Source of the DNA: Candidatus Pacearchaeota archaeon
GTDB taxonomy: Archaea > Nanobdellota > Nanobdellia > Pacearchaeales > GW2011-AR1
Direction of reading: 5' to 3'
Assembly (NCBI GenBank): GCA_041656875.1
Contig: JBBACR010000001.1
Coordinates: 325,386-389,385 of the forward strand
DNA: 64,000 nt
Shown: positions 17,608 through 63,697 of the stretch, in pieces
Numbering within the stretch: the first letter of the stretch is position 1
How the letters are laid out: every line of letters begins with the position of its first letter
Program-made: the position numbers and the translations under genes
The notes under the pieces: model-generated
Database searches by the model: none
The model's input: the letters and a program-made list of their open reading frames with translations, nothing else
What the model was told of the DNA's origin: nothing

Positions 17608-17610
17608 GAA

Positions 17611-17883
17611 ATGAAAAAGAGAATACCAACATTTGATGAACATGTAAACGAAGGCATATTGCAAAGTTTTATTGATTTGTTCAAGAAAAAACCTGATGTA
17701 AGTACATGGACGCCACCAGAATTTAAAATTGAAGCAACATTAAAAAAGATTTTAACTGACGATGGCTGGACAAACTTAGGACGTGATGAAGAAGGCCGAC
17801 TAATCGGAAACAATACAAAGTACGGCGGTAATGGATTAGATGTTATCGAAACAATGCGTGATGAAAAAAAATTAAACTTCTAA
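17611..17883 (+). CDS. RIPT-leader family protein (90 aa)
   Basis: MKKRIPTFDEHVNE leader. Confidence 0.55.
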   Translation: MKKRIPTFDEHVNEGILQSFIDLFKKKPDVSTWTPPEFKIEATLKKILTDDGWTNLGRDEEGRLIGNNTKYGGNGLDVIETMRDEKKLNF

Positions 17884-17884
17884 T

Positions 17885-18658: not shown

Positions 18659-18861
18659 AACATTACTTCATAAATTGTTTTACCTTTTTCTGTAATTTCC
18701 CATTCGTTTTTCTCATTGCATACAGCAAGTCCTAAATGAACCATTTTTTGCAATGCTAAAATTATATCTTCTTCAGAAATATTTTCAATAATCGGAAGCT
18801 CATGAAAGATTTTTTCTTTTATGAGCTTCGTGTATATTATGCTTACTTGTTTATCATTCAT
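18655..18861 (-). CDS. hypothetical small protein
   Basis: ORF track 68 aa; convergent overlap with 17885..18658. Confidence 0.35.
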   Translation of the reverse strand: MNDKQVSIIYTKLIKEKIFHELPIIENISEEDIILALQKMVHLGLAVCNEKNEWEITEKGKTIYEVMF

Positions 18862-30815: not shown

Positions 30816-30867
30816 ATCAATTAATTAAAATCAAATATACAACATTTATGAAGCAATAGCAATAGTT
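30816..30867 (-). promoter_or_regulatory. class A promoter element
   Basis: same consensus; followed by small membrane protein ORF. Confidence 0.55.
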
Positions 30868-32486
30868 TATGAAAATAATTTTACATAAGATGATAATGAA
30901 TCGTATGCATCTGTTAATTTGAATTCTTCAACTATTAATTTTCCATCGTATATTTTGCCGTTTATTGCATCAACTGAAATAAAATCGCCTTCTTTATAAA
31001 CTTTATTGTTAATTGTTAATGTTAATGTTTTCATATCAATTGTCATATTGCTACAGCCAACAACACAAGGTTTATTCATTTGTCTTGCAACAATTGCTGC
31101 GTGGCATGTCATACCACCTCTTGTTGTTATAACGCCATCTGATAATTTCATACCAATTAAATCAGCAGGTGATGTATCAATTCTAACTAAAATTGAGTTT
31201 TCTCCGGATTTATTAAATTTTTCAACACTTTCATTATTAAAAGCAATACGGCCAACCGCAATACCGCTTGATGCACTTAATCCTGTTGAAATATGAATAT
31301 CGTTTACTTTTAATCTTTTTGCATTAAGAAAATGCAATTGAGTTTTATCTATTCTATTCAATGCAGTATTAGGTGATATTAAACCTTCGCACGCCATATC
31401 ATATGCAATATTAACAGCGCCAAGTATATTACATTTTGCATTTCTTGTTTGTAAAATGTAAACAATTTCATTTTCTATCGTAAATTCGATATCTTGAACA
31501 TCGCCATAATGTTGCTCTAATTTATTAGCATAAGATATGAGTTTACTATATGCAATTGGCATTGATTCTTCTAATGAAATGTAGTTTTTATTTCGTTCAG
31601 TTTCATCTATAAAATTATCAGTTGCCCATTTTGCCGATTCATATTTCGATATTTTTTTAGGTGTAACAACACCTGATACGATATCTTCACCTTGTGCTTT
31701 TGTCAAATATTCTCCAGTTATCAGATTTTCACCTGTAATAGGATTTCGTGTAAATAATACACCCGTTCCTGAATTGTCATTTATATTTCCAAAGACCATT
31801 GATTGTACAACAACAGCAGTTCCTAATGAATCATCTATGCCGTATGATTTTCTGTAATAAACAGCAACATCATTATTGAAAGAATTGAATACTGCAGATA
31901 TTGAACGGAATAACTGCGTGTATACATCAATAGGAAATTCTTCACCGATTTCTTTGAAATACAACTTTTTATATTCTGCAATTGCTGTTTGCAATTCTTC
32001 TACTGTTGCGTTATTATTGCAAAAATCAAATAAATCTTCATCGATGCCAGACACATGAATTGCAAAAGTTTCGATGAATTTCAAATATAATCGTAATGGA
32101 AATATTGCATCTCCAGTTTCTTTAGCAATTACATTAACAATATCATCATTGATTCCAACATTTAAAATTGTTGTCATCATGCCAGGCATTGATTCAACAC
32201 CGCTTGAACGTATTGATAAAAGTAATGGATTAGAACTTCCGCCGAACAACTTGTTTGTTTCTGATTCTAATGTTTTTATATCATTAGTAATATGCTGTTT
32301 TAATTCAGATGTTATGTTTTTATCGTTTTTCCATTTTGCGTATGCATCAGTTGAAACAATAAAACCGTATGGCAATGAAACATTCAAACGATTCATTTCT
32401 AAAAGATTGAATCCTTTTCTACCTACTGCTGTTAATTCGGCAGTATCTGAAAAATTTGTTCTAAAAAAATACGATAGTTTATTCAT
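30867..32486 (-). CDS. PEP-utilising enzyme family protein: PpsA/PPDK N-terminal ATP-grasp plus phosphohistidine swivel domain, no PEP-binding TIM barrel (rifampin-phosphotransferase-like architecture)
   Basis: N-term VGRKGFNLLEMNRLNVSLPYGFIVSTDAY; C-term GGMTCHAAIVARQMNKPCVVG = PEP-utilisers phosphohistidine signature; start revised from TTG to ATG (MNKLSYFF). Confidence 0.6.
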   Translation of the reverse strand: MNKLSYFFRTNFSDTAELTAVGRKGFNLLEMNRLNVSLPYGFIVSTDAYAKWKNDKNITSELKQHITNDIKTLESETNKLFGGSSNPLLLSIRSSGVESMPGMMTTILNVGINDDIVNVIAKETGDAIFPLRLYLKFIETFAIHVSGIDEDLFDFCNNNATVEELQTAIAEYKKLYFKEIGEEFPIDVYTQLFRSISAVFNSFNNDVAVYYRKSYGIDDSLGTAVVVQSMVFGNINDNSGTGVLFTRNPITGENLITGEYLTKAQGEDIVSGVVTPKKISKYESAKWATDNFIDETERNKNYISLEESMPIAYSKLISYANKLEQHYGDVQDIEFTIENEIVYILQTRNAKCNILGAVNIAYDMACEGLISPNTALNRIDKTQLHFLNAKRLKVNDIHISTGLSASSGIAVGRIAFNNESVEKFNKSGENSILVRIDTSPADLIGMKLSDGVITTRGGMTCHAAIVARQMNKPCVVGCSNMTIDMKTLTLTINNKVYKEGDFISVDAINGKIYDGKLIVEEFKLTDAYDSLSSYVKLFS

Positions 32487-32489
32487 AAT

Positions 32490-32542
32490 CAATTTTTAAA
32501 ATCAAATATACAACATTTAGAAATCATTAGCAATGGTTTCAT
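32490..32542 (-). promoter_or_regulatory. class A promoter element
   Basis: ttttaaaatcaaatatacaacatttagaaatcattagcaatggtt. Confidence 0.5.
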
Positions 32543-38444: not shown

Positions 38445-38968
38445 TCACGTTTATTGTAAACCGTAAACTCTTCTTCAGGAACGAATACCAATTCGTTTTT
38501 AGCACGAGTACATGCGACGTAGTCTATGTTGCGTTCTTGCTGTATGTCCATATCCTTTTTCGCCCATGGTGCTTGTAGGATTTTTGGTTCAATGATAAAT
38601 ACTTTGTGCGATTCTAAACCTTTAACTTTATGAATTGTTGAACAACAAATTCCTGCTTTATTATCAGCAAAGATTGCAGCAATCAATGATGTTAATTCAG
38701 AAACCTTACTTAAACGTTTTGAATCTGTAAGAATTTCCATTACTTGAATTTTTTCTTCGAAATTTCTGTACGATGTTGTGTTTGTTGCCTCTTCAGGTGT
38801 CATTCCTAAGCCCATCAATTTAACTCTAATTTTTGAAAGGTCACCGTAAAGTGTTGAAATTGCACCTTTAATAGTTGGGCGTTTTGTTTTCTCCAACATT
38901 GTGATTAAGTTTTTTCCTATATCAGAACCTTTAACGTATGCTTTTTTATGTTGAGCAATAAATTTCAT
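38441..38968 (-). pseudogene. isolated UvrD/PcrA-type helicase C-terminal fragment (motifs V-VI only)
   Basis: STIHKVKGLESHKVFII and YVACTRAKNELVF correspond to helicase C-terminal motifs; no N-terminal ATPase part in window; flanked by two homing-endonuclease genes. Confidence 0.4.
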
Positions 38969-39850
38969 ACAAAGGGTAACAAGTGGACGAGTTGTACGGC
39001 AAAGAAAATGAAAGCACCGATAATTAAAATTTGTCCTTTTTGCTTAATTGAATTTATTGCAAAACGAACAAAGTCAGTTTTTTGTTGTAGATCGCATGCG
39101 CAAACATATGCAGCAAACAAACCCGAACGTATTGCATTAAGTTCTTTAAATGCAAAAGCTAGATGGACGGATGCTACATTCAGAAATCATATGTTAGAAG
39201 AAATTAAAAATTTTGCATCATCTGCGGAATTCAAAGAAAAACAGTCGGTTGTTCAAAAGGAAAGACAATCTCATCAATCGGTAAAAGCGGAAATTAGCAA
39301 ACGTTCCAAAGAACAATGGGCAAGACAAGAAACGAAGGAAAAACAATCTGCATCGCAAAAAATTGCGCAAAATAAGTCAGACGTTAAAGAAAATAAGTCA
39401 CACAAACTTAAGCAAATAACAAATGAATGGCACTGGCGTAAAAGACAATCCCAAAATATGTTAAATTTATGGAAAAATGCAGATTATGCAGAACGTGTAT
39501 TTGCTGGAAATAAAGCAGCAATGTATAAACGTTACGATTTTATATTGCCATCTGGCACAATAGTAAAGTTGCAAGGATATGAACCTCGCGCATTGCGTGA
39601 ACTGTTAGAAACTTATCATGAATCAGATATAGTAATCGGCGTTAAAGAAATGAATTCCGTCATAGGAACAATTTCGTATTTGTTTGAAAGTAAAGAAAGA
39701 ACATATTATCCAGATTTTTATATAAAGTCAACTAATACAATAATAGAAGTTAAAAGCACGTGGACGTTTGAATCGGAAAAGGAAAAAAATATAGCAAAAG
39801 AACAAAGTTGTTTATCAAAAGGATTTGCTTTTAAATTTATTATTTATTAA
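38948..39850 (+). CDS. putative homing endonuclease (Zn ribbon plus PD-(D/E)xK), paralog of 18858..19625
   Basis: CPFCLIEF..CCRSH; C-term YYPDFYIKSTNTIIEVKSTWTF. Confidence 0.5.
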   Translation: MLSNKFHTKGNKWTSCTAKKMKAPIIKICPFCLIEFIAKRTKSVFCCRSHAQTYAANKPERIALSSLNAKARWTDATFRNHMLEEIKNFASSAEFKEKQSVVQKERQSHQSVKAEISKRSKEQWARQETKEKQSASQKIAQNKSDVKENKSHKLKQITNEWHWRKRQSQNMLNLWKNADYAERVFAGNKAAMYKRYDFILPSGTIVKLQGYEPRALRELLETYHESDIVIGVKEMNSVIGTISYLFESKERTYYPDFYIKSTNTIIEVKSTWTFESEKEKNIAKEQSCLSKGFAFKFIIY

Positions 39851-40535
39851 ATCGTGCAAATGCCTTCTCTGTTATAAATATTTTTCTCGACTTTTTAAAT
39901 TCTAACAAATTCTTAGACGAAGTATAGCTCATTGCACTTGACAGATAATGTTTAAAATTTTCAACCCAACCGTCAATTGTGTATTCAACAGGATTCATTC
40001 TTGTAATTCCTTCCGACGTTTTTATTACGTCAGCGCCTAAAGATTTTTGTGCACCTTTAGTACTCATTCCTCTAAATTTTTTGAAAAATTGAGTTCCGTA
40101 ATTAAATGCAATTTCTGTTTCCTCTGCATATTGATTCACCTTTTCACCTGGTTCAGTCCAGCCATCGTTCTTTTTATTTTGTTTGTATGTATCGCCACAA
40201 CTTTCCAATGCTTTATTGAAAATTGAACCAATCATACAAAAATCAGCACCTAACGCAAGTGCTTTAAGTATATCTGAGTAACTTTTAAATCCACCATCTG
40301 CAATTATTTTTGCAGGTTTTTCTAATCTTAAAGACATTTCATAGCATTCAGAAATAAGTGATGCCATTGGATAACCTATTCCTGTTTGAACAGTTGTAAG
40401 ACACCCGCTGTTATGAACAATAATTCCGTTTATATTATATGAATGATCTGTTTCTATACATAAATCATGTACTGTACCTTCGTAATATTCAACACTTTTT
40501 TTTATTTCTATTAAATTAAAACTTCGTTTTCCCAT
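39840..40535 (-). CDS. guaC: split-intein C-fragment (IntC, 42 aa) fused to GMP reductase C-extein
   Basis: MGKRSFNLIEIKKSVEYYEGTVHDLCIETDHSYNINGIIVHN (intein blocks F and G) then SGCLTTVQTGIGYPMASLISEC...ADGG (GuaC catalytic-Cys loop and downstream motifs). Confidence 0.6.
   Translation of the reverse strand: MGKRSFNLIEIKKSVEYYEGTVHDLCIETDHSYNINGIIVHNSGCLTTVQTGIGYPMASLISECYEMSLRLEKPAKIIADGGFKSYSDILKALALGADFCMIGSIFNKALESCGDTYKQNKKNDGWTEPGEKVNQYAEETEIAFNYGTQFFKKFRGMSTKGAQKSLGADVIKTSEGITRMNPVEYTIDGWVENFKHYLSSAMSYTSSKNLLEFKKSRKIFITEKAFARFNK
40410..40535 (-). other. IntC segment of split intein
   Basis: blocks F/G, terminal HN followed by +1 Ser. Confidence 0.55.
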
Positions 40536-41623
40536 GATTTTATTCTTTTAAATTCGCATTTTAGATATGTTCGTATTTCTTCTTCTCGTATTTTATCTTT
40601 CTCTCGTAAGTTCCCATTTCTATCAAAATGATATGGCTCATCATATTCATATACAATATTATTTATTTCATCATAGCCATCAACAAAATAACCTAAATCT
40701 TTAATATGATATTCGCCGCCGTTCAATGCATGACATATTTGCGTATTTGTCTTTTTTGCAAGTTTATCAAAATACGTGCAGCCATTTACATTAAAATTGG
40801 GTTGATGAATACAACCGTTTGGAAAATACATTGCAATACGTTTAAGCATTGTAACTCTAAGATTTCTTCTATGTTCTGTTGAAAATTCGCGGCCTTTTAA
40901 TGATTCTGATATTTTATCTAAAATGTCATTCCATTTATCTGTTTCTTTTAACTTTCGTATCGCGTTTTTCATATTTTGTTTGTATGCTTCAAACTTTATA
41001 TCTGCCACTTCTTTCCCATATTTTTCTTCCCACACAGAATAAACAGATTTACCAAACATTGGATTATTATCGCATGAACTCGCAAACTGTTGTCTCACTT
41101 TGTACGCTTCAAACTTTATATCTGCCACTTCTTTCCCATATTTTTCTTCCCATACAGAATAAACAGATTTACCAAACATTGGATTATTTTCGCCATCGTA
41201 TTTTCCTTTCATCCCATCAGACCTATGTTTTTTCATTTCTGGAGAATGCCGTTTATTATAAAACGGATTATTTTCGCCGATAAAATTTTCTTTGATATGA
41301 TTATCCCACATCGAATTGCCTGTTTCTTCACCATACTTTCCAATCCATATTGTCTTCAAAGATTTTTCAAACATTGGATTATTTTCGCCTTTAATTCTGC
41401 ATTTTCTACATAGAAAGATTTTATCCAATTTTGGCCGTGATCTTTGAACAGTTTCATGTCCGCAATCGCTGCATATAATTTTATTGAATTTCATATTTGC
41501 TTCCTTTGCACGCATTTCATTGCCATCAATAAACTTAAATACAAAACAATTTTTATTTTTTAATTCATACGCAATAACTTGAACGTCATCAATATAAAAT
41601 GTCGGTATTATTTTTGTTTCCAT
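40511..41623 (-). CDS. free-standing homing endonuclease between intein halves: Zn finger, NUMOD3-like repeats, C-terminal Vsr/DUF559-like PD-(D/E)xK
   Basis: Own ATG after 60-nt AT-rich spacer; CSDCGHE..CRKC; GENNPMFGKS x3; C-term VDGYDEINNIVYEYDEPYHF; frames differ from both intein halves. Confidence 0.6.
   Translation of the reverse strand: METKIIPTFYIDDVQVIAYELKNKNCFVFKFIDGNEMRAKEANMKFNKIICSDCGHETVQRSRPKLDKIFLCRKCRIKGENNPMFEKSLKTIWIGKYGEETGNSMWDNHIKENFIGENNPFYNKRHSPEMKKHRSDGMKGKYDGENNPMFGKSVYSVWEEKYGKEVADIKFEAYKVRQQFASSCDNNPMFGKSVYSVWEEKYGKEVADIKFEAYKQNMKNAIRKLKETDKWNDILDKISESLKGREFSTEHRRNLRVTMLKRIAMYFPNGCIHQPNFNVNGCTYFDKLAKKTNTQICHALNGGEYHIKDLGYFVDGYDEINNIVYEYDEPYHFDRNGNLREKDKIREEEIRTYLKCEFKRIKSWENEVLI
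40981..41198. repeat. ~97-bp near-perfect tandem duplication (period 120 bp) inside intein-associated HEG
   Basis: 40981-41078 vs 41101-41198 identical except 2-3 positions; encodes duplicated NNPMFGKSVYSVWEEKYGKEVADIKFEAYK. Confidence 0.7.
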
Positions 41624-41684
41624 TTCTTGTTTATTTTATATATAAAGAATATGAAATGCAAATTATACAAGAATTGGAGTTGGG

Positions 41685-42500
41685 CTAATATTGAATCAAT
41701 AAATGTGTGTTTTCATCCAAATCAACAGCAGATATCCATTTTGCATATGCTGATATGTTATCATCATCGACTATATCTTTATACTTTTTGTCAATAACGT
41801 AGTATTCATGATTCATTGTTGAACCTTCACCATTAATAAATATTATGTCTTCTTCTTTATTATATGTATATGTTTCTATTACTTTTTGCCATATGTTTGT
41901 GTGTGTTAAGACATAATCACCAACTTTAACATCTTCTATATTTTTCAATCCTGTTTTTGTCAAAACTTTTGTTCCTCTGATGAAACAGCCGCCTCCAATA
42001 CCGCAACGAATTGCATCGGCGCCAGCAATTGATAAATCCCAATACGTTTCTGGATTAGCAATATTACCTACCATAAGATACAATTTTGTTCCGTATTTTC
42101 TTTTTGCTGCACCGATAGCGGATGACAAACTTGCCATGTGTCCATTAGCAATATCAATAAGTACATAATACGTTCTATCATTACCTAAGATTAATTTAGA
42201 TAATGTTGAATCTTTTAAAAACAAATCAGTAAATTGCGTTAAACTGTATGATTTAAAAATTTTTGCAAAATCGCTGTAATCTTGAGACCTTGCATCTTGT
42301 ACTCTTGGAAATACTGCATATATGTTATTATTCAAAAAATATTCATAGTTATCATTATTAATAACAGTATCCATTGGTGCTGTCATAATTGGTAACATGC
42401 CATCATCATTAAACAAATTGCATTCGCTTCTTGATGAAATTTCCGTCGATACGGATGGGACGATAAGAATATCGTCAAAATCAAATTTTCTTTCTATCAT
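41685..42500 (-). CDS. guaC: GMP reductase N-extein fused to split-intein N-fragment (IntN, ~99 aa)
   Basis: MIERKFDFDDILIVP, PIMTAPMDTV, VLIDIANGH, MVGNIA, CGIGGG then CFIRGTKVLT...GSTMNHEYYV (intein blocks A,B) to stop; start revised to Met-17 of table ORF. Confidence 0.6.
   Translation of the reverse strand: MIERKFDFDDILIVPSVSTEISSRSECNLFNDDGMLPIMTAPMDTVINNDNYEYFLNNNIYAVFPRVQDARSQDYSDFAKIFKSYSLTQFTDLFLKDSTLSKLILGNDRTYYVLIDIANGHMASLSSAIGAAKRKYGTKLYLMVGNIANPETYWDLSIAGADAIRCGIGGGCFIRGTKVLTKTGLKNIEDVKVGDYVLTHTNIWQKVIETYTYNKEEDIIFINGEGSTMNHEYYVIDKKYKDIVDDDNISAYAKWISAVDLDENTHLLIQY
41688..41987 (-). other. IntN segment of split intein
   Basis: Cys1 codon at 41985-41987; blocks A and B; ends at stop. 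Confidence 0.55.
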
Positions 42501-42735
42501 CTTTTCCTTTTTTAAGTGCTTTTTCGATTCCGTCGCATATTGCAACAAAATCTGGGTTTAACGATTGTCTTAAATATACGCCTGTGCCTTGTAATGAAGT
42601 TTCGGCATAACACTCAACAAGTTCGATAATTCTATTCTGAATTTCTTTTTTATTGTGTTTCCAATCAGCGCCTTTTGTTTCTTTTGACATTTCAATCATT
42701 TTCATGATTGCTTTTAGTTCTTTATCAAAATCCAT
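42481..42735 (-). CDS. hypothetical protein
   Basis: ORF track 84 aa. Confidence 0.4.
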   Translation of the reverse strand: MDFDKELKAIMKMIEMSKETKGADWKHNKKEIQNRIIELVECYAETSLQGTGVYLRQSLNPDFVAICDGIEKALKKGKDDRKKI

Positions 42736-42738
42736 AAA

Positions 42739-43686
42739 TTAATGTTTTAGTTTACAATTATCAAAATGAAATAATTTAAAATTACTTTTTCCAGATTTTC
42801 CACAATGCGGGCATTCGTACACTGGTCTATATTGGTTTTTTGCAATTTCCCGTTTCTTTTTACGAAATGCTTCACGTTCTTCTTCTGTCATCTTTGCAAA
42901 ATATGCTTTACTAGTTTCGCGTAATTTTTCACGCCGTTTCTGTTTATCATCTTCGGACTTTGCATCAATTGTTTGTTTGAATTTTGCTGTGCGTTCTTTA
43001 AGTTTATCTTCTGACATATTCAATACACGTTCGCTAGCATCTTTGCGGATTTTTTCTTTATGTTCATCAGTTAAATTATTAAACGCATTCCGTAAATTCT
43101 CTTTTTTCAATTCTCTTTCATCGTCTGTTAAATTACGCCATTGTTGTCTTACATTTTCTTTGCAATTTTCTTTCTGTTCGTTTGTCATGTTAGACATTCC
43201 TTGCTTTACCGCATTTGCAATATTTTGTCTTTCATCTTGCGACAATTTTGACCATCTTTTCTGCATTCCAAGAGAATGCTTTTGCTTTTGTTCTTCCGCA
43301 ATAATATCAGATTTATAAATCTCGGCGTATGTTTTTCCTTTTAATGCATCAGATAATTTTGTTCGTGTTTCCGCAGTAGGACTATAATCCAGTATCAATT
43401 TACCGCCGCCAGTGATTAAATTCATACATAATGGCTCATTTATTAAAGTGATTGTTACAATTTCTTTTTCTCTTAAAACAACAGATGCTCTATCTTTGCA
43501 ATATTCTAAAATTTCAGTTTTAAAATTGTTACGTCCATACTTTTGTATTGAACGCCACAAATATAATCCCGAACCAATGTAACCATCATTCAAATCAAAA
43601 GTAGAATGCATACCGATATAAAACTTATTATTTATAAGATTTGTTGTTTTATAAATATAATGATACGTGTGAGGTTTCCTTGCCAT
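42739..43686 (-). CDS. GIY-YIG homing endonuclease with NUMOD-like repeats and C-terminal Zn finger
   Basis: YHYIYKTTNLINNKFYIGMHS...YIGSG; repeated ...NxTDxExxK modules; CPHCGKSGK..C..H. Confidence 0.6.
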   Translation of the reverse strand: MARKPHTYHYIYKTTNLINNKFYIGMHSTFDLNDGYIGSGLYLWRSIQKYGRNNFKTEILEYCKDRASVVLREKEIVTITLINEPLCMNLITGGGKLILDYSPTAETRTKLSDALKGKTYAEIYKSDIIAEEQKQKHSLGMQKRWSKLSQDERQNIANAVKQGMSNMTNEQKENCKENVRQQWRNLTDDERELKKENLRNAFNNLTDEHKEKIRKDASERVLNMSEDKLKERTAKFKQTIDAKSEDDKQKRREKLRETSKAYFAKMTEEEREAFRKKKREIAKNQYRPVYECPHCGKSGKSNFKLFHFDNCKLKH

Positions 43687-45282: not shown

Positions 45283-45501
45283 TCAAACAGTTGTTTTTAT
45301 GTACCCATGATTATAAGGGTCTCCTTCAATGTGGTTTAGTTTATATTCAGCAAGTATTTCAATTACAATGTTTTTCATTGCTGTTGAATTTCCTGTTACA
45401 AAAATAACATCAACATTTGCATTCCAGTGTCTTTCAATTTCTCGTATAATATCATTTCTAACGGATATGTGAGAACGTCCATGCAAATCTAAAACGTACA
45501 T
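45283..45501 (-). CDS. Smr-domain protein
   Basis: VLDLHGRSHISVRNDIIREI...VIFVTGNS...IVIEIL fits Smr LDLHG core. Confidence 0.5.
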   Translation of the reverse strand: MYVLDLHGRSHISVRNDIIREIERHWNANVDVIFVTGNSTAMKNIVIEILAEYKLNHIEGDPYNHGYIKTTV

Positions 45502-45503
45502 AT

Positions 45504-45914
45504 TTATTCAAATTTATAAGATTTCAGTGTTTGAAATCTTTTTGTTAAATCGTCAATTTCTTCTGGAAAGCAAGGTCCTATACCTATGCATGTTATTGTC
45601 GGTTCAGTGAAAACTGTATAACCTGCATCTTTTATTATTGCAACAGGAATGTTTCTTGCTTTCACATCTTCTGCTAACTTTAATAATTTGTCAAGACTTT
45701 TGCATCCCAATATAATTTTAACAAATGGTCCATCTAACCAAAGTTGTAAAGCAGAACCTTCCTTTGTAATTAATGTTCGAACGTCGCCAGACTTTGTCAT
45801 TTGATTATACACAGGTGCTTCACTTGCATGCGATATTTGTGCACCTAATTTGCCCATTGGCATAACTAAATCGGTTCTTACAACAATAACTTGTTTTGGT
45901 AAATTTTGAGGCAT
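45504..45914 (-). CDS. peptidyl-tRNA hydrolase, PTH2 family
   Basis: QVIVVRTDLVMPMGKLGAQISHA ... DAGYTVFTEPTITCIGIGP aligns with PTH2 VVRxDL.MGKGK.AAQCSHA / DAGxT..T.LGIGP. Confidence 0.8.
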   Translation of the reverse strand: MPQNLPKQVIVVRTDLVMPMGKLGAQISHASEAPVYNQMTKSGDVRTLITKEGSALQLWLDGPFVKIILGCKSLDKLLKLAEDVKARNIPVAIIKDAGYTVFTEPTITCIGIGPCFPEEIDDLTKRFQTLKSYKFE

Positions 45915-45929
45915 ATTGCTTTTTATTTG

Positions 45930-45950
45930 TTTGATTTATATATACATAAC
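45930..45950 (-). promoter_or_regulatory. class B motif (longer spacer)
   Basis: gene-sense TTATGTATATATAAATCAAACAAATAAAAAGCA-ATG. Confidence 0.4.
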
Positions 45951-45956
45951 TATCCG

Positions 45957-47105
45957 TTAGTTTTCTACTATATGCAGTTCATGCGCTTCAATATTCAACG
46001 GCACTTCTAATTTTTTGCGCATTTTATCCATCACGCATAACGGAACTTGTTCTTTTTCTGTTCTGCTTAAATTTTGTTTTACACAATCAGCATAAGGTGT
46101 TGCAATAAAAATTATTTTTACATACGCCTTATACGAAGTGAACAATGAAATAAGTCCTTCTCTCATTTGTCTTGTTATGTTAGTTGCATTCCAAACAAAA
46201 TCAATTCCTTTTGCCATATATTCTTTGGCAGTTTTCTTTGCTTCTTGAATAACACGACCTTGTTCATCAGTCGGCTTTATTTTTAATCTTCTTCGTATTT
46301 CGTCTAAAGATATCACAGGTATTCCTGACATATGTTTCGATATGTAATAATCTTTACCCGAACCAGGCAAACCTACCATCATGCATACGGTTGATTTTGT
46401 ATCATCAAACGGACAATCTGAATGATGATGTGTTCTTTCAACAAGATACTTATATTTTGCAATTCCTGTTCCGAATTCGTATGCACCGTCAATAAGATCC
46501 AAATCAAAAGCTAATAATAAAAAGTAATCAATTGCTTCAAGTCTTTTATCAATGTCTGATGCAATTCTTCCTTTAAAATCACTTTTTGTCATGTAATAAA
46601 GATTGTCCATTCTGCAATCTTGTGACATTTTAATAATTGAACGTTCTTGTTCTTCTCTTGTTTTATCAATAAGCCATGTAGGTTTTCCATGATATAGAAT
46701 AAGATTGCAAATTTCGATACGATCCAAAATAGGCATCTTATCACCATTAATTATTGATACTTTAAGGTTCTCTAATAATTCCCATGCAATTTTTGCGCCT
46801 GTTGCTTCGTGTCCATGTGCTCTAATTTTGCCATCCTCTAATTTTGAGACTATCGGTTTTGCAATATCATGAAGTAACAATGCATAATTTATAATTGTTA
46901 TGTCATGCGCGCATAACGATAATTCTTCATCAATTCCGTCAAGTTCATTACAAATTTTTTCAAATTCGTCAAGAACCATTTTTGTATGTGTTAGCACATC
47001 GCCTTCACCGTGCCAGTCTGGATTTTGTTCGCATAATGACATTGCATTTAAGTATGGATGCAATTCTTTCCATTGCGGAACAACATAATCATAAAATTTA
47101 CTCAT
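45957..47105 (-). CDS. HD-Pnk: N-terminal HD phosphoesterase plus C-terminal P-loop 5'-OH polynucleotide kinase (end-healing enzyme)
   Basis: NPDWHGEGDVLTHT, LLLHDIAKP, HGHE (HD motifs); CMMVGLPGSGKDYY Walker A; architecture as described for Runella HD-Pnk. Confidence 0.65.
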   Translation of the reverse strand: MSKFYDYVVPQWKELHPYLNAMSLCEQNPDWHGEGDVLTHTKMVLDEFEKICNELDGIDEELSLCAHDITIINYALLLHDIAKPIVSKLEDGKIRAHGHEATGAKIAWELLENLKVSIINGDKMPILDRIEICNLILYHGKPTWLIDKTREEQERSIIKMSQDCRMDNLYYMTKSDFKGRIASDIDKRLEAIDYFLLLAFDLDLIDGAYEFGTGIAKYKYLVERTHHHSDCPFDDTKSTVCMMVGLPGSGKDYYISKHMSGIPVISLDEIRRRLKIKPTDEQGRVIQEAKKTAKEYMAKGIDFVWNATNITRQMREGLISLFTSYKAYVKIIFIATPYADCVKQNLSRTEKEQVPLCVMDKMRKKLEVPLNIEAHELHIVEN

Positions 47106-47108
47106 TTC

Positions 47109-48302
47109 TTATAATTTTAATAGTCCTTGTTCAATATGTCCCGAATATAATTCTCTAAGTTTATCGTGTCCGATATTCAATATTTCAGATTCAAGTTTCG
47201 CTCTCCTCCAATTTTTCGACCAATGTTCATCGGTTTTCACATGTTTTGCTCTTACATATTTGTAAACAGAATTGTAAAACATGTCATTTGGAAATTCTTC
47301 TTGTATTCTAGCAACCACGCCTTCTTTAGGTGATTCAAATATCATATCGTTCGATAAATGAGATGTGTGTGTCATCAAATCATTTATTATGTCTTCCATT
47401 GTTTGCGGCTGTTGAACACGGAATTTATTTTCAACTCGCCAGTTTGATGAATCAACTCTGAAAAGAATCGGAACAGTTACAAAATCAAACATTTTTGCCC
47501 AATATTCTGTTTCCTCCCACGATAAGAAAACATCATGTTTCATATTTCTTACACCAAATACGTAAAAGTGTTCCTGCAATCCAGAATAAATAATAGAATG
47601 CTCACCATACATATTTTCGCCACAAATTTCAAGGTCGAAATCTTTTAAATCATTTTTGATTGAATCCCATTTGGGTTTAAGCCATTGCGCCCATGGGTTT
47701 TTTGTTGGTGCTGTTCGTGATCTTGCAAATAAACCGTATTGTGAAATACTTGTGTTTTCGCCATCAAGTTTTTCTGTTATGATAACAGGTCTTTTGTAAA
47801 GAATATTTGTATTTTTTGCAATCCTATCATCTGATGTTGTACCAGGTGAAAATGGAAAATGATAAGTTCGAGGATACTTATCAACAATAGGATCATACGG
47901 TTTATCGAAATCTTTAAGACGAGATTGTATGATCTTTTGAACATTTGCATTGCGGAAGATATATCCTTTCAATCTTCGTCCATCTTTTAAAATTGGATTT
48001 CCCCATTTATCATAATCCATAACAAATTCGTTAAGTGATAAATCGGAAGGATATAATATGTTTTTTATTTTTGCGTGCGATCTTAAAAATTCGCAAGATA
48101 TTTCAGTTTCCTCTGCCAACATATGATGTTCAAAACACAATGAAACACCGTTATCTAAATAATAACCGCCGTCATCGAATAACGAACGGTCGATTATATG
48201 ATGTGCATCAACTGCAGGTTTTCCGCATATAACGCATTTATGATTATCTCGTTTGAATACAGATTCTTTGAATTCTGTTCTATTTAACAATGTCTGATTC
48301 AT
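47109..48302 (-). CDS. HNH endonuclease domain fused to ATP-dependent RNA ligase (covalent nucleotidyltransferase) domain
   Basis: CVICGK..DAHHIIDRSLF...NGVSLCFEHH (HNH); ITEKLDGENTSI (motif I KxDGxN), ICGENMY (III), KEGVVARI (IV), VRAKHVK (V). Confidence 0.6.
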   Translation of the reverse strand: MNQTLLNRTEFKESVFKRDNHKCVICGKPAVDAHHIIDRSLFDDGGYYLDNGVSLCFEHHMLAEETEISCEFLRSHAKIKNILYPSDLSLNEFVMDYDKWGNPILKDGRRLKGYIFRNANVQKIIQSRLKDFDKPYDPIVDKYPRTYHFPFSPGTTSDDRIAKNTNILYKRPVIITEKLDGENTSISQYGLFARSRTAPTKNPWAQWLKPKWDSIKNDLKDFDLEICGENMYGEHSIIYSGLQEHFYVFGVRNMKHDVFLSWEETEYWAKMFDFVTVPILFRVDSSNWRVENKFRVQQPQTMEDIINDLMTHTSHLSNDMIFESPKEGVVARIQEEFPNDMFYNSVYKYVRAKHVKTDEHWSKNWRRAKLESEILNIGHDKLRELYSGHIEQGLLKL

Positions 48303-48351: not shown

Positions 48352-49044
48352 TTATGATTTTAAAATTTCTGGCCATGCTGCATAATCAACATTTTCAGAC
48401 ATGCAATATTCGCGAACTGAACGCTTTTGAGCAGCAGACATTTTATCAGGCAATACAAAATTAGGTGGGTCAGTCCAACCTAATATACGAGCCCATCCCA
48501 TATCTTGTAGAATTTCATAATGATATTTGCCAAATTGCTTTTCAACAAATCCGTATTTATCGCAAAGTTCTGGACAATTGTCTTTTAAGTAATCTGCAGC
48601 AAATTCTTCATGACACGCAAAACCTACCCAATGAACATGGCCTGACGGTTCAATCCAACAAGATTTATATGTTCTACGAACAACTTCAATACTTACTTCT
48701 TCAATTTTTTTAAGTTCTTTTGTTCCTTCGGTTTTTGCAACTTTTGGTTTTCTTGTTGCTTTCTTGCGTTTTTTTGCAAACACTAGTCTGCCTTCAATAA
48801 CAGGAACAGATAAAATAGTATCATACGGTTTTGCATTTGTTTTCTTGAATGAAAGAACAACCCATTCAAATACTAATTGAAAATCGAATTCTCTGCATAA
48901 TGAAGGTATTTGGTCGTCAACCCAATTTCTTGCTTCATATATTGAGTCGAATGTTGTATCTTCAATAACAGTTTCAAAAACTGCTTTGTAAAAAGATGCA
49001 TTCTCGCAATACGTACAATAAAATATGAGTTTTGTGTTTTTCAT
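48352..49044 (-). CDS. hypothetical protein
   Basis: ORF track 230 aa. Confidence 0.45.
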   Translation of the reverse strand: MKNTKLIFYCTYCENASFYKAVFETVIEDTTFDSIYEARNWVDDQIPSLCREFDFQLVFEWVVLSFKKTNAKPYDTILSVPVIEGRLVFAKKRKKATRKPKVAKTEGTKELKKIEEVSIEVVRRTYKSCWIEPSGHVHWVGFACHEEFAADYLKDNCPELCDKYGFVEKQFGKYHYEILQDMGWARILGWTDPPNFVLPDKMSAAQKRSVREYCMSENVDYAAWPEILKS

Positions 49045-49268
49045 TATATTAAAACTTTAACAATTTTTGAATCAAAAGATCCATTACTTTCAACGATAAC
49101 AAATTGCTTGGGATACTTTGAATTTTCATTTAAATTTATCGCATGAATTTCACATTCTTCAGCAGAATCAAAATAATGTTTAAATTTACCGGTTGCTGTT
49201 TTTGAATTTTTATTACCTTGTACTCTTAGTGAGCCGTATTGATAATAATATAAAAGATATGTTAACAT
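49044..49268 (-). CDS. hypothetical small protein
   Basis: ORF track 74 aa; class A promoter upstream. Confidence 0.4.
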   Translation of the reverse strand: MLTYLLYYYQYGSLRVQGNKNSKTATGKFKHYFDSAEECEIHAINLNENSKYPKQFVIVESNGSFDSKIVKVLI

Positions 49269-49279
49269 TTTTTGTTTGT

Positions 49280-49331
49280 TTAATTGTTAAAAATCAAATA
49301 TACAACATTAATGAAGCAATAGCAATAGATT
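49280..49331 (-). promoter_or_regulatory. class A promoter element (subtype 2: ttgttaaaatc...)
   Basis: same consensus. Confidence 0.55.
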
Positions 49332-49336
49332 ATGCA

Positions 49337-49687
49337 TTAAAATTTTTCTGGCTCTCCTTGTTTTTCTTCAATTAATTTGTAAAATTCTGCATGAATTCCA
49401 GGCCAAGATGAATGCACTCTATATGCAGGAAATTTAACATTTTGTTTTTCGCATTCTTTTTTCAAATATTCAGCACAATCCAAACCTGTTTTAGGACCAA
49501 GTATGTTATAATCGAAAGATACAAAATTTGGAATACCGTTTTCCTCAATTACATTGATAAAATCGCCATACGATAACGCTAATTTGAATTCCGCAGTATC
49601 ATAAATTGATTCATCACCAGGATAATCACGACAATGTTTTGGTTGACGTTCATCGTCAAGAAATAAATTATAACTCATAAGTTGCAA
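49337..49687 (-). CDS. hypothetical protein
   Basis: ORF track 116 aa. Confidence 0.4.
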   Translation of the reverse strand: MQLMSYNLFLDDERQPKHCRDYPGDESIYDTAEFKLALSYGDFINVIEENGIPNFVSFDYNILGPKTGLDCAEYLKKECEKQNVKFPAYRVHSSWPGIHAEFYKLIEEKQGEPEKF

Positions 49688-50301: not shown

Positions 50302-50352
50302 TTTAATTGTTAAAATCAAATATACAACATTAATGAAGCAATAGCAATAGTT
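50302..50352 (-). promoter_or_regulatory. class A promoter element (subtype 2)
   Basis: same consensus. Confidence 0.55.
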
Positions 50353-54920: not shown

Positions 54921-55107
54921 GTTCTTTTTCTAATGCACGTGTGATTTTACTCTTTGGAAAGAAAACCCTAATTAAAGAAACCGGAACTAAGGGTGCCCAC
55001 CAAAATGTTAACCAAATAGGAATATGTCCTATTGCAAATAATGAAACTAAAATTGCAACAACTGCTATTCCGATTGTTCCAAAAAATATGTAATCAGCTA
55101 TTCTCAT
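54868..55107 (-). CDS. small two-TM membrane protein
   Basis: ADYIFFGTIGIAVVAILVSLFAIGHIPIWLTFWWAPLVPV. Confidence 0.4.
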   Translation of the reverse strand: MRIADYIFFGTIGIAVVAILVSLFAIGHIPIWLTFWWAPLVPVSLIRVFFPKSKITRALEKERAKVSDKHSKVQQQSNI

Positions 55108-55811
55108 TAATATGCATTTAAGTGTGCCATCAATTCAATTACGCCTGATGTTGCTGGTTTTTGTATATGAACAAAAGAGACATCAGATTTTGAATTTACT
55201 TCAGCAGGGTCGATTAAATAAATTTCAGTTGTGGTTGCAATATCAAGTAATGATGCTGCAGGATATACTTGTAAGCTTGTTCCTACAACGACAACAATAT
55301 CAGCATCACGTACAATTTTTGCAGCTTCATGCATTTTAGGAACTGCTTCGCCAAAGAACACAACAGCAGGTCTGTAATCAGGTCTTTCTTTTAAATCTAA
55401 AGGAGCGTATCCTATATCAATTGTTTGCGAATTATCACCTCTTAATACATAAACAGGATCTTGGTCTTTACGAATTTTTGTTAATTCACCATGAATATGT
55501 AAAATATTTGTACTTCCCGCTCGTTCGTGTAAATCATCAACGTTTTGTGTAATCACATGTACGTCAAAGTGTTTTTCAAGTCGGACGATATTAAAATGCG
55601 CGCTATTGGGTTTTATTGATTCAAGATCTTTTCGTCTTTCATTATAAAACTCATTCATTTTATCTTTCATCGAATGCCAAGATCTGATATTTGCATATAC
55701 AGCAGGATCATATTTTTCCCATAAGCCCCCTTTGTCACGATATGTATCAATTCCGCTTTCTTTTGAAATACCAGCACCTGTTATGAATACTAATTTTTGT
55801 TTCTTTTCCAT
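55107..55811 (-). CDS. Sir2-family NAD-dependent deacylase/ADP-ribosyltransferase lacking the Cys4 zinc ribbon
   Basis: VFITGAGISKESGIDTYRDKGGLW; ITQNVDDLHERAG; HIHGE; VVFFGE; VVVGTS; the segment between HG and VFFGE contains no cysteine. Confidence 0.7.
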   Translation of the reverse strand: MEKKQKLVFITGAGISKESGIDTYRDKGGLWEKYDPAVYANIRSWHSMKDKMNEFYNERRKDLESIKPNSAHFNIVRLEKHFDVHVITQNVDDLHERAGSTNILHIHGELTKIRKDQDPVYVLRGDNSQTIDIGYAPLDLKERPDYRPAVVFFGEAVPKMHEAAKIVRDADIVVVVGTSLQVYPAASLLDIATTTEIYLIDPAEVNSKSDVSFVHIQKPATSGVIELMAHLNAY

Positions 55812-57928: not shown

Positions 57929-58801
57929 TTAATTACGTTTTCTTTTTTTTGCTGATTCGCGCATTTTTTGTTTCGTTTCGTCTGTTCGTTTTTGACCTCT
58001 CCTAGATTCTGCTGCTTTGTCTATAGATTCTTGCTTTTGTCTTACACCTCTTGTTATACCTACCAATTCACCTGATAAATATCTGGGGTCATCTCGTAAA
58101 ACTTTGTATGTTTTACCTGATGCGTCTTTAACCATTACCATTCCCTTTGATATGTTTACCAATTCCCCCGATAAATATCTAGGATCGTTTTTATCAACTT
58201 GTAATGTACAGCCATTGGCATCTTTAACAGTTACTCTTCCTTTAGCAATACCCACCAATTCGCCAGATAAATATCTTACGTCGTCAGGTAATACAGAAAA
58301 ATAATTGCCATTTGCATCTTTAACACTTATACGTCCTTTAAACATGTGAATTAATTCACCAGATACATATCTTGGATCATTTTTATCAACCATATGATAA
58401 TTATTATCTGAATCTAATGTTGGCACAATGCCTTTTGTTACGCCAACAAAATTCCCAGATAAATACAGTTCGCTGTCTTTACGTAATAACTTCACATTTC
58501 CGTTAGCATCCTTTAGTGATGCTGCACCTGTTGTGTGAAAGCCAACAGATGGAATATGATAGTTTTCATTTAAAGGATCTTCAATCCATTTTGAAATTTC
58601 TTCAGTTTCAAACTTAATAGCATCTTCTCTACAAATAAAGTCATCTTTAATAATTTCCTTTTTTAGTTTTGTTTTGTTAGGTTTCCAAGTTTTCATTGAA
58701 CCTAAATAAGAATCTAGAGTAGGATGAACTTCTGAACTTCTGGAACCTATATAGAATTGTTTAGTTTCTATATGTTCAATTCGATATACATAATGATACA
58801 T
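57929..58801 (-). CDS. GIY-YIG homing endonuclease with tandem 29-aa repeats, paralog of 37266..38444
   Basis: MYHYVYRIEHIETKQFYIGS; repeats VKDANGNxxxVxxDDxRYLSGELVGIxKG x5-6. Confidence 0.6.
   Translation of the reverse strand: MYHYVYRIEHIETKQFYIGSRSSEVHPTLDSYLGSMKTWKPNKTKLKKEIIKDDFICREDAIKFETEEISKWIEDPLNENYHIPSVGFHTTGAASLKDANGNVKLLRKDSELYLSGNFVGVTKGIVPTLDSDNNYHMVDKNDPRYVSGELIHMFKGRISVKDANGNYFSVLPDDVRYLSGELVGIAKGRVTVKDANGCTLQVDKNDPRYLSGELVNISKGMVMVKDASGKTYKVLRDDPRYLSGELVGITRGVRQKQESIDKAAESRRGQKRTDETKQKMRESAKKRKRN
58036..58516 (-). repeat. five to six tandem ~87-bp coding repeats in paralogous GIY-YIG gene
   Basis: VKDANGNYFSVLPDDVRYLSGELVGIAKG-type units. Confidence 0.55.
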
Positions 58802-58885: not shown

Positions 58886-58984
58886 TCTGTCGATTCTAAG
58901 ATATGATATTTTAAACCTAAAGAATCAAGCCAACCTGTATAATTTGGCATTTGGTTTGGATGTGCAGGTGCAAGTGCTATCATA
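58886..58984 (-). pseudogene. orphan 5' fragment (~33 codons) homologous to the start of the GATase gene
   Basis: minus-strand ATGATAGCACTTGCACCTGCACATCCAAACCAA... = MIALAPAHPNQMPNYTGWLDSLGLKYHILE vs GATase MIAVAPPHKNQLNNYLEWLEYRQLKYHVLNE; ATG overlaps stop of 58980..59699 (TAAGATATG). Confidence 0.45.
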
Positions 58985-59699
58985 TCTTAGGTGCTAATTT
59001 TCTAAAATCTGTTAATAATAACTTATGTGTTTGTTTGAATCTTGATTCCCAAACCGACCAATCCAATGGCATTTTTTTAATAGCATCAAGATAACAGTTT
59101 GCTGACGAATAATCAACTATTTTACCATGTGTTGCAATTTGAATACCAAATTCAACAATTCTTAAAGAATGAAACAATGATTTTTGTGCAATGTACGTTT
59201 CGCCGTCTGCAAGTTTCTTTTTTGCTTTAACCCATGAATTGCTTGATACTTGTGAAATTGAATGACGGAGTTTTTGCAAATTTAATTCAAATGTGTAATC
59301 GGTCTTTCCTTCAGACATGTGAGCAGGTAAAAAGAAGCATTCAAGTGCTGAAATTTCATGATTATCCAAATCTTTTTGAAAACCTTTTTCATTATAAAAT
59401 GTGAAGTTGTTTCCTAAAATTTCAACAGAATCAATTTTTTCTTCTGGTTGTTCACGAACAACAATAAAGTCAAAATCCGATTCGGATGTGTTACACCCAT
59501 ATACCCGTGAACCATATTGGAATTTTGAAATAACTTTTGGGTTATCTAAACCGGGTTCGCATGTTAATTCTAATTGTGGCGCATCAACTATTGTGTTGAA
59601 TATGAAATCTGCAATTGCAGTTTCAACTGCTGTTTCATTAGCCGCTGGCCTTCTTGCAGCATTCCACAATGCTTGTTTTTGTTCCTTTGTAAATATCAT
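58980..59699 (-). CDS. Pol-beta-superfamily nucleotidyltransferase
   Basis: GSRVYGCNTSESDFDFIVV = hG[GS]x9-13Dh[DE]h NTase signature. Confidence 0.45.
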   Translation of the reverse strand: MIFTKEQKQALWNAARRPAANETAVETAIADFIFNTIVDAPQLELTCEPGLDNPKVISKFQYGSRVYGCNTSESDFDFIVVREQPEEKIDSVEILGNNFTFYNEKGFQKDLDNHEISALECFFLPAHMSEGKTDYTFELNLQKLRHSISQVSSNSWVKAKKKLADGETYIAQKSLFHSLRIVEFGIQIATHGKIVDYSSANCYLDAIKKMPLDWSVWESRFKQTHKLLLTDFRKLAPKI

Positions 59700-61280: not shown

Positions 61281-61334
61281 TTGTTAATTGTTTAAAATCA
61301 AATATACAACATTAATGCAGCAATAGCAATGGTT
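61281..61334 (-). promoter_or_regulatory. class A promoter element (subtype 2)
   Basis: same consensus. Confidence 0.55.
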
Positions 61335-61888: not shown

Positions 61889-61940
61889 TATCAATTGTTT
61901 AAAATCAAATATACAACATTAATGAAGCAATAGCAAATAT
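61889..61940 (-). promoter_or_regulatory. class A promoter element (subtype 2)
   Basis: same consensus; preceded by hairpin terminator. Confidence 0.55.
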
Positions 61941-63644: not shown

Positions 63645-63697
63645 TTTAATTAATAAAATCAAATATACAACATTAATTAAGCAATAGCAATAGAAAT
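63645..63697 (-). promoter_or_regulatory. class A promoter element
   Basis: same consensus. Confidence 0.55.

Follow-up and report, generated by a model that had tools for sequence, protein, structure and literature searches.

The phage T4 enzymes Pnkp and Rnl1 act against the anticodon nuclease PrrC: the 2',3'-cyclic-PO4/5'-OH ends are healed and are then sealed with an ATP-dependent ligase, which amounts to a phage counter-defence. This heal-then-seal scheme is also reviewed in PMC7824862. A bacterial counterpart is known from Runella slithyformis, in which a ligase open reading frame (ORF) lies immediately upstream of the end-healing enzyme HD-Pnk and overlaps it; PMC6097658 reports end-healing activities for HD-Pnk, self-adenylylation for the ligase, and the RNA enzyme Tpt1 in the same cluster. 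In jumbo phages, Rnl2-family ligases fused to an HNH domain were described by Iyer et al. 2021 (PMC7824862), who suggested that the fused HNH attacks host or rival-phage DNA. The locus considered here carries both kinds of component, a ligase with an N-terminal HNH module (HNH-LIG) and an adjacent HD-Pnk. It belongs to a stretch of 64,000 nucleotides (nt) from contig JBBACR010000001.1 of assembly GCA_041656875.1 (positions 325,386 to 389,385 of the forward strand), which is called the window and is numbered from its first letter. With a probability of roughly 0.6, the two genes form a heal-and-seal cassette for broken nucleic-acid ends, most likely those of RNA, and represent the phage version of the bacterial LIG/HD-Pnk pair.

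The ligase and HD-Pnk genes

The region 45283-48302 comprises four consecutive minus-strand ORFs of 72, 136, 382, and 397 amino acids (aa), separated by gaps of 2, 42, and 3 nt in the order Smr, PTH2, HD-Pnk, and HNH-LIG. A preliminary description of this DNA had placed four adjacent genes exactly here; all four of its gene identities are correct, and the motifs that it quoted are all present in the proteins. The genes and the domains of the ligase are the following.

45283..45501, minus strand: minimal stand-alone Smr-domain protein, 72 aa, with its start 2 nt past the PTH2 stop codon
45504..45914, minus strand: PTH2-type peptidyl-tRNA hydrolase, 136 aa
45957..47105, minus strand: HD-Pnk, 382 aa, with its start 3 nt past the ligase stop codon
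47109..48302, minus strand: HNH-LIG, 397 aa, made up of an HNH module, a conserved linker, and a predicted minimal ATP-dependent RNA-ligase-like nucleotidyltransferase domain
47178..47888, minus strand: nucleotidyltransferase domain of the ligase, aa 139-375
48099..48281, minus strand: HNH domain, aa 8-68, with predicted zinc ligands C23, C26, C56, and H/C59 and catalytic residues H34, N51, and H60

Sequence comparison and structural models establish what the genes are, that their catalytic motifs are intact, which folds they have, and their orthology and synteny. From the known relatives we infer the activities, the substrate, and an anti-defence role: the pair probably repairs RNA, likely tRNA, that has been cut by host defence nucleases.

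The ligase part of HNH-LIG matches Pfam RNA_ligase (PF09414) over aa 172-350 with E 1.1e-28. In an alignment of 45 full-length homologues, which are 35-66% identical, the invariant residues are K178, D180, and G181 of motif I (which reads K178-L-D-G-E-N), E229 of motif III, E327 and G328 of motif IV, and K348 and R351 of motif V, together with K142, H148, D158, and D159 of the N-terminal ligase segment KYPRTYH...DD. The KHVK stretch that had been counted among the ligase motifs is present in the protein, but its residue K353 is variable (K in 11/45), and only the two motif V residues just named are constant. An AlphaFold model of the whole protein is one compact structure with a predicted local distance difference test score (pLDDT) of 91 and a predicted template modelling score (pTM) of 0.89. 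When this model is compared with the PDB by Foldseek, the top 33 matches are RNA ligases except for one Aquifex entry deposited as a putative DNA ligase; they include Naegleria NgrRnl, archaeal Rnl3, T4 Rnl2, and fungal Trl1 (best E 8.8e-7), and established DNA ligases enter the list at rank 34. The structures of Rnl2, Rnl3, Rnl5, and Trl1 match about equally well, so that no subfamily is clearly nearest. A profile search of the PDB finds NgrRnl weakly (E 0.058), and single-sequence PDB searches return weak HNH (IscB) and kinase matches only.

The protein ends about 45 aa beyond motif V and has neither an OB domain nor the C-terminal domain of the Rnl2 type. Membership in T4 Rnl2 sensu stricto was considered and is ruled out by the absence of this C-terminal domain after the nucleotidyltransferase domain. 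The earlier call of an RNA ligase that keeps its motif I lysine, rather than a DNA ligase, agrees with the invariance of K178, the PF09414 match, and the fold matches. The domain is, as predicted from sequence and model, an ATP-dependent RNA-ligase-like nucleotidyltransferase with intact catalytic motifs.

HD-Pnk contains an HD domain at aa ~27-185 (Pfam HD E 2.7e-7, 31.3 bits vs a cut-off of 22; TIGR00277 HDIG 32.3 bits vs 27.6) and a P-loop kinase at aa ~236-375 (AAA_33 E 1.4e-22). The kinase can be aligned with 4gp7, the Pnkp kinase of Clostridium thermocellum, at E 1.9e-5, and the GxxGxGK motif, D268 (the Asp general base), and R271 are in register. Across 29 sequences, H79, D80, H99, D176, K251, D268, and R271 are invariant, and H32, H40, and H139 are near-invariant. 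Bacterial full-length homologues with 34-42% identity occur in Bacteroidota, Cyanobacteria, Planctomycetota, Myxococcota, and Chloroflexota. In the Cytophagaceae genome CP133159, a stand-alone PF09414 LIG of 230 aa directly precedes HD-Pnk; this LIG is 46% identical to aa 139-373 of the window ligase, and the HD-Pnk is 38% identical over its full length. A LIG gene is located within 5 kb in 74 of 80 bacterial HD-Pnk loci, at least 62 times directly upstream on the same strand, and none of these 74 LIGs has the HNH part. Full-length homology and identical gene order with the Cytophagaceae/Bacteroidota members bear out the earlier assignment of HD-Pnk and ligase to a Runella-type pair.

Among phages, the huge phage LR756500.1 and its IMG/VR counterpart have the ligase (59% identical) and HD-Pnk (47%) directly adjacent, and the order ligase then HD-Pnk is also present in two metagenomic phage contigs, one of which carries a T4-type Rnl1 and Thg1. 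In a sample of 80 HNH-ligase neighbourhoods from IMG/VR, inspected within 8 kb, a true HD-Pnk adjoins the HNH-ligase in one. The 974 neighbouring ORFs of these loci were clustered and no family appears in more than five loci, which suggests that HNH-ligases have no fixed partner outside the HD-Pnk sub-clade. Judged by these comparisons, the conserved unit is the LIG and HD-Pnk pair, to which HNH is added in the phage form; most HNH-ligases have no HD-Pnk with them.

Two other ORFs were seen close to ligases of this family. In LR756500.1, a 424-aa ORF that looks PARP-like by eye ('FWHGSRNQNW...'; L001 1831-3105) is located about 3 kb upstream of HNH-LIG/HD-Pnk, with an AAA-type ATPase in between. 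In four related IMG/VR contigs (L074-L077), a 175-aa ORF with two HxT motifs (HCTVLY and THVTLSY, e.g. L075 6613-7140) follows the HNH-ligase after about 100 nt, and is probably a 2H phosphoesterase acting as an alternative healing partner.

The HNH module, inteins, and mobile endonucleases

The N-terminal domain of HNH-LIG matches PHROG HNH families down to E 2.7e-8, remains below the cut-off for Pfam HNH_2 (15.8 vs 21), and as a profile finds the HNH of IscB in the PDB (E 0.0055). C23, C26, H34, N51, and C56 are invariant in the 45 sequences, H/C59 is kept in 44/45, and H60 in 43/45. The fusion had been presented as unusual, which it is not: it has a PHROG of its own, phrog_24030 ('RNA ligase'), which matches HNH-LIG end to end with E 4.5e-81, at least 478 IMG/VR stretches encode relatives, and the architecture was published in PMC7824862. 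Full-length relatives are found in the huge phage LR756500.1, Salicola SCTP-2, Ralstonia RsoM2USA, Caulobacter CcrBL9/CcrSC, Acinetobacter ME3, and the archaeal virus HGTV-1 (Halogranum). A large protein database yields 3,499 homologues at E<=1e-5; of the top 120, nearly all cover the HNH part. A megablast search of the region against 50,697 phage records gave no nucleotide match, and the relatives are seen at the protein level only.

The mean pairwise identity among the 45 sequences is 60% in the HNH part vs 44% in the ligase part. The HNH module is under stronger constraint than the ligase and, because of this stronger conservation, probably has a catalytic job of its own, which is a point beyond PMC7824862. 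A selfish homing endonuclease that was fused in frame to the ligase by chance, and that plays no role in ligase function, would suit a genome rich in mobile endonucleases (GIY-YIG/NUMOD3 and DUF7487 ORFs) and split inteins, as well as the occurrence of the HNH-plus-linker module alone as a 139-aa phage protein and the bacterial orthologues that do without HNH. It is nevertheless a very improbable account of a fusion that is kept across such divergent homologues, whose linker is conserved and whose model is single and compact; moreover, the HNH part retains its catalytic and zinc residues and exceeds the ligase part in conservation, which speaks for a genuine catalytic function and against a selfish endonuclease in decay.

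Mobile elements have reached the ligase gene itself. In a sister strain (JGI contig Ga0378408_0000332, L004), 1,463 nt (7899-9361) replace positions 47745-47754 of the window, and the flanks are identical to the window in 7,898/7,898 and 11,788/11,789 bases. The ligase of this strain is divided into three ORFs: a 283-aa N-half (P0024) with the junction '...KLDGEN/CLDADTLII...', a 338-aa DUF7487 endonuclease, and a 250-aa C-half (P0018) with the junction '...ILVHN/SSLSQYG...'. The insertion point is just after KLDGEN, five residues past K178, and the window copy is intact. On the sequence, the sister-strain ligase is a fractured gene with a split intein and a homing endonuclease, and the insert is a very recent gain or loss that provides a natural split-intein pair at motif I. 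Inteins tend to target active sites, and an intein next to motif I is therefore expected of a functional enzyme.

A second fractured gene and several free-standing endonuclease-like ORFs are present in the window.

39840-42548, minus strand: fractured gene, IMPDH/FMN-dehydrogenase-like, with an N-part plus Hint_2 intein segment (41685-42548), a 370-aa NUMOD3 endonuclease (40511-41623), and a C-part (39840-40535)
18858-19625, minus strand: free-standing homing-endonuclease-like ORF (this and the next three are DUF7487 or GIY-YIG/NUMOD3-like)
38948-39850, plus strand: free-standing homing-endonuclease-like ORF
42739-43686, minus strand: free-standing homing-endonuclease-like ORF
57929-58801, minus strand: free-standing homing-endonuclease-like ORF

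In one strain variant, 25 nt are missing from the NUMOD3 endonuclease region, which leaves a shorter endonuclease ORF of 330 aa. These features indicate heavy mobile-element traffic in the genome.

Neighbouring genes and the proposed function

The PTH2-type protein matches Pfam PF01981 over profile positions 2-114 of 115 (E 2.8e-26, 92.4 bits vs a cut-off of 23), in agreement with its earlier identification as a peptidyl-tRNA hydrolase, and NCBIfam Pth2 with E 9.5e-26. Its scores against the NCBIfam equivalog models are below their cut-offs (90 vs 126 and 77 vs 82), which suggests a divergent member of the family. Homologues occur in 44 phage records, mostly of jumbo phages. HNH-LIG and PTH2 co-occur in LR756500.1, SCTP-2, and RsoM2USA, and XacN1 has a ligase-domain-only relative in addition to its PTH2; in these other genomes the co-occurring genes are 24-198 kb apart.

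The 72-aa Smr protein alone gives no match in Pfam (E<=10), PHROGs, or NCBIfam. An exhaustive HMMER search places it in a mini-Smr family of 117 small proteins (59-154 aa, mostly 70-90 aa); Pfam Smr (PF01713) is matched by 54/56 aligned members, with a best E of 3.3e-8, and several members are named Smr endonucleases by JGI/NCBI. The best PDB matches of the family profile are Smr domain structures of N4BP2. An AlphaFold model built with 45 sequences (pLDDT 93) shows the order beta-alpha-beta-alpha-beta-beta, and its six best PDB matches are all Smr domains, from Thermus/Deinococcus MutS2 (2zqe, 4och) at a template modelling (TM) score of 0.84 and from N4BP2 at 0.73-0.77 (3fau 0.76). The DxH motif D5-L6-H7 is invariant. 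The second motif is G37-N38-S39 instead of GxG, with S39 invariant; in E. coli SmrB, DxH is required in vivo and a GxG mutant has no discernible effect on in vivo activity. The earlier Smr call is right, and profile and model describe the window protein as a bare domain. Single-protein scans of IMG/VR yielded no relatives of the window PTH2 or Smr.

Upstream of the ligase, the following features lie on the same strand.

48352..49268, minus strand: two ORFs with function not assigned, p74 (74 aa) and p230 (230 aa), between a promoter-like element and the ligase
49337..49687, minus strand: cREC domain protein, 116 aa, co-oriented and three genes upstream of the ligase
11233-11267, 30831-30865, 49294-49328, 50316-50350, 61298-61332, 61905-61939, and 63659-63693, minus strand: seven copies of a 35-nt element

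The preliminary description had passed over the cREC phosphoesterase gene, which matches Pfam PF20274 with E 2.6e-14 (54.1 bits vs a cut-off of 27). Profile searches of Pfam, PHROG, and NCBIfam give no significant family match for p74 and p230, and in the neighbourhood comparison these ORFs occur in near-identical strains only. In PMC7824862, cREC is proposed to open cyclic phosphates and its linkage to RNA ligases is reported; PTH2, cREC, and RlaP of jumbo phages are rationalised there as RNA repair parts, and PTH2 is proposed to clear cleaved peptidyl-tRNA.

The 35-nt element CTATTGCTATTGCnTCATnAATGTTGTATATTTGA is present in the window in seven minus-strand copies, vs 0 expected from 100 shuffles, and the four copies that were examined all sit just ahead of a gene start. 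The copy at 49294-49328 is just upstream of the run p74, p230, HNH-LIG, HD-Pnk, PTH2, and Smr, the copy at 50316-50350 is upstream of p167 and cREC, and the copy at 11233-11267 is upstream of ORFs that had been put forward as a 2H phosphoesterase. The element contains TAnnTTTG, which we take to be the Bacteroidetes -7 promoter box, and it likely represents a phage promoter class with a -7 box of this type. A sigma-70 promoter scan is uninformative (56 sites vs 44.5 expected), and no terminator-like site is found on the minus strand at 42.5-51 kb. Because of the tight packing, the lack of a terminator-like site, and the promoter-like element at 49294-49328, co-transcription of the cluster is likely.

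The four genes had also been regarded as one module. A single pathway might be imagined in which cleaved tRNA stalls ribosomes and each protein has its own task: cutting of mRNA on these ribosomes for Smr, release of the peptide for PTH2, mending of the tRNA for HD-Pnk and the ligase, and coupling of cleavage to resealing for HNH. The close packing of four genes downstream of one promoter-like element, the action of Smr relatives at collided ribosomes together with the catalytic DxH kept by the mini-Smr, the role proposed for jumbo-phage PTH2 (PMC7824862), and the genomes that hold both HNH-LIG, or its ligase-domain-only relative in XacN1, and PTH2 speak for such a pathway. It is rather unlikely all the same, as the adjacency is confined to near-identical strains: 0/80 other HNH-ligase neighbourhoods have PTH2 or Smr and 1/80 has a true HD-Pnk, PTH2, ligase, and HD-Pnk are all absent from four other mini-Smr contexts on large phage-like contigs, and the genes that co-occur elsewhere are far apart. 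In addition, the mini-Smr lacks the N-terminal ribosome-recruiting extension or KOW domain described for SmrB and a Bacteroidetes clade. On this comparison of neighbourhoods, PTH2, Smr, and cREC are lineage-specific additions and not a fixed module.

In the heal-and-seal reading, metal-independent host RNases such as anticodon nucleases would leave 2',3'-cyclic-phosphate or 3'-phosphate ends, which the HD domain would convert to 3'-OH. The P-loop kinase of HD-Pnk would turn 5'-OH into 5'-phosphate, and the ligase domain would self-adenylylate on Lys178 and seal the break via the Lys178-AMP intermediate. The HNH module may trim ends to ligatable 3'-OH/5'-phosphate termini or may attack foreign DNA. 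PTH2 would free tRNA from peptidyl-tRNA on stalled ribosomes, the minimal Smr is a putative endonuclease whose relatives cut mRNA at collided ribosomes, and cREC, just upstream of the cluster, is a putative cyclic-phosphate phosphoesterase. PTH2, Smr, and cREC plausibly serve translation recovery after host RNase attack.

Several points weigh against this reading. According to PMC6097658, the Runella ligase self-adenylylates yet sealed no 3'-OH/5'-PO4 RNA or DNA substrate tested, so that sealing, which had been taken as established, is not; the Runella HD-Pnk is titled 'DNA/RNA end-healing enzyme', and DNA ends are thus possible too. The window contains no tRNA genes and no Rfam RNAs. PTH2 is about 57 kb from the ligase/HD-Pnk pair in the closest phage relative, LR756500.1; within 8 kb, PTH2 or mini-Smr accompany the ligase in none of the 80 other loci, and cREC in 2/80. 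Moreover, where a genome is built of long runs of co-oriented genes, adjacency by itself is weak evidence.

The pair could also act on DNA, with HD-Pnk healing 3'-phosphate/5'-OH nicks and the ligase sealing them; HNH would then be a nickase of DNA or a weapon, and Smr would nick DNA as well. DNA is the substrate of most characterised HNH nucleases, and JGI labels members of the mini-Smr family 'DNA-nicking Smr family endonuclease'. The title of the Runella HD-Pnk, the failure of the Runella ligase on the RNA substrates tested (PMC6097658), and the DNA target suggested for the fused HNH in PMC7824862 are in line with this. Action on DNA is still unlikely for a ligase that belongs to Pfam RNA_ligase, that has RNA ligases as its 33 best structural matches except for the one Aquifex entry, and that is without the OB domain found in DNA ligases. 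The ligase of Runella failed on DNA substrates as well and has the RNA enzyme Tpt1 in its cluster, and the neighbours in the window are PTH2 and cREC.

The fused HNH might also supply the partner that this ligase family, Runella included, is missing, and so account for its failure to seal any ordinary nick. HNH-LIG would then trim and seal: HNH would cut damaged or nuclease-shortened RNA ends to 3'-OH/5'-phosphate and the ligase would rejoin them on the spot, within a pathway linked to the ribosome, with the mini-Smr cutting mRNA where ribosomes have collided and PTH2 freeing broken tRNA for HD-Pnk/HNH-LIG. This extended scheme is quite doubtful, and the two-gene heal-and-seal cassette remains the preferred reading.

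Origin of the DNA, other genes, and comparison with known systems

An NCBI protein that bears the label 'Candidatus Pacearchaeota archaeon' and occurs on contigs of up to 425 kb has 100% identity to the window HD-Pnk, and an ENA contig agrees with the window to 99.995% over 21 kb. The window has about 31% G+C, and its minus strand holds most genes. Its content includes homing endonucleases, inteins, and best matches to jumbo phages, and one protein that is unusual among phage genes and hints at the host:

7341-9539, minus strand: 732-aa protein with BspA-type leucine-rich repeats, several BACON domains, and a C-terminal T9SS sorting domain (Por_Secre_tail)

Because of the jumbo-phage homologues, the homing endonucleases, the inteins, and the BACON/T9SS protein, the gene content is probably that of a huge phage of a Bacteroidota host and not of an archaeon, and the bin is probably mislabelled. 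This calls for caution in databases, as a 425-kb contig deposited as a Pacearchaeota archaeon looks like a huge Bacteroidota phage. The preliminary description had pictured a phage that anticipates tRNA/rRNA-cleaving defences of its Bacteroidetes host. The host is plausible in view of the BACON and T9SS domains and the TAnnTTTG box, and anti-defence repair was already published for jumbo phages (PMC7824862), but the activities and the role in this phage are predictions.

Three further window genes had been connected with RNA repair, the first of which is the following.

58980..59699, minus strand: Pol-beta superfamily nucleotidyltransferase, possibly RlaP-like, about 10.7 kb from the cluster

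Its identity as a Pol-beta nucleotidyltransferase agrees with the match to phrog_388 (E 5.4e-14). The Pfam matches to RlaP (PF10127, E 0.18) and NTP_transf_2 (18.5 bits vs a cut-off of 21) are both below cut-off. In Bacillus phage Kirov and its relatives, homologues with 44% identity are encoded two genes away from an RNA ligase and three away from a Pnk, and a link of this protein to RNA repair is plausible on the sequence evidence.

The call of a LigT-like 2H phosphoesterase at 10765-11194 finds no backing. The motifs HVTL and HDTF are in different frames that meet at an A8 run (10985-10992, minus strand), which may point to a sequencing error or a pseudogene or may be a slippery site. Neither ORF by itself has a match in Pfam, NCBIfam, or PHROGs, and the joined 143-aa frame has none in Pfam or the PDB (E<=10).

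Likewise, a Tpt1-like protein at 17885-18658 is not borne out. The ORF has no match in Pfam, NCBIfam, PHROGs, the PDB, or a phage tblastn search. Tpt1 is defined by an Arg-His-Arg-Arg tetrad in PMC6097658, and the only arginines in the first ~200 aa of the ORF are R4 and R18, neither of which adjoins a His; with no family match and no such tetrad, Tpt1/KptA was rejected for this ORF. It is the third of three tandem plus-strand ORFs at 17236-18658 (123, 90, and 257 aa) that have a common N-terminal motif 'K..RIP(T/S)FD(E/D)' and form a small paralogous family.

Other genes of the window include an ADP-ribosylglycohydrolase (PF03747, E 7e-29; 9633-10445, minus strand) and a SIR2-family protein (55107-55811, minus strand), which together with the cREC protein (49337-49687, minus strand) suggest, by their sequences, an NAD+/ADP-ribose conflict toolkit alongside the RNA repair genes. 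A 541-aa protein at 30867-32492 on the minus strand has a PPDK_N domain (E 2.5e-47) and PEP-utilising mobile domains, and no phage function is apparent for it.

If the heal-and-seal interpretation is true, this is one more huge phage with a kit to undo host RNA-cutting defences and to restart translation. The phage ligase links a family whose bacterial prototype is not known to have a substrate to a strongly conserved HNH and to PTH2, Smr, and cREC neighbours, which suggest broken tRNA, trimmed ends, and 2'-phosphate ends as ligase substrates. The components and the overall logic are already in the literature, and the result is a sound annotation and not a new system.

Fractured genes with split inteins and free-standing homing endonucleases were reportedly described by Dassa et al. 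2009. Similar to these, the sister-strain ligase is split into N-extein plus IntN, endonuclease, and IntC plus C-extein ORFs; in contrast, the arrangement is confined to a strain variant and the inserted endonuclease is a DUF7487 protein. The 72-aa Smr protein has the fold (TM up to 0.84) and the invariant DxH in common with the Smr domains of SmrB, MutS2, and N4BP2, but lacks the ribosome-recruiting N-terminal extension, KOW, and MutS modules of SmrB and MutS2.

When compared to T4 Pnkp and Rnl1, the window pair has a phosphoesterase of the HD type and not the HAD type, and its ligase is a minimal PF09414 protein and not Rnl1; when compared to T4 Rnl2, the C-terminal domain is missing. The Runella LIG/HD-Pnk system (Munir & Shuman 2017; described in PMC6097658) resembles the window in its N-terminal HD phosphoesterase, its C-terminal P-loop 5'-OH kinase, and the LIG immediately upstream, with the identity to this type being measured on the Cytophagaceae pair and not on Runella sequences. 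It differs in that the phage ligase has an extra N-terminal HNH-plus-linker of about 138 aa, and in that no Tpt1 or MTase-HIT genes are near the window pair, the neighbours being PTH2, mini-Smr, and cREC. The jumbo-phage HNH-Rnl2 ligases (PMC7824862; phrog_24030) share the architecture of an N-terminal HNH followed by PF09414, and in contrast to them the window and a small sub-clade (LR756500.1/L011, L008, and L009) pair this fusion with an HD-Pnk of the bacterial type.

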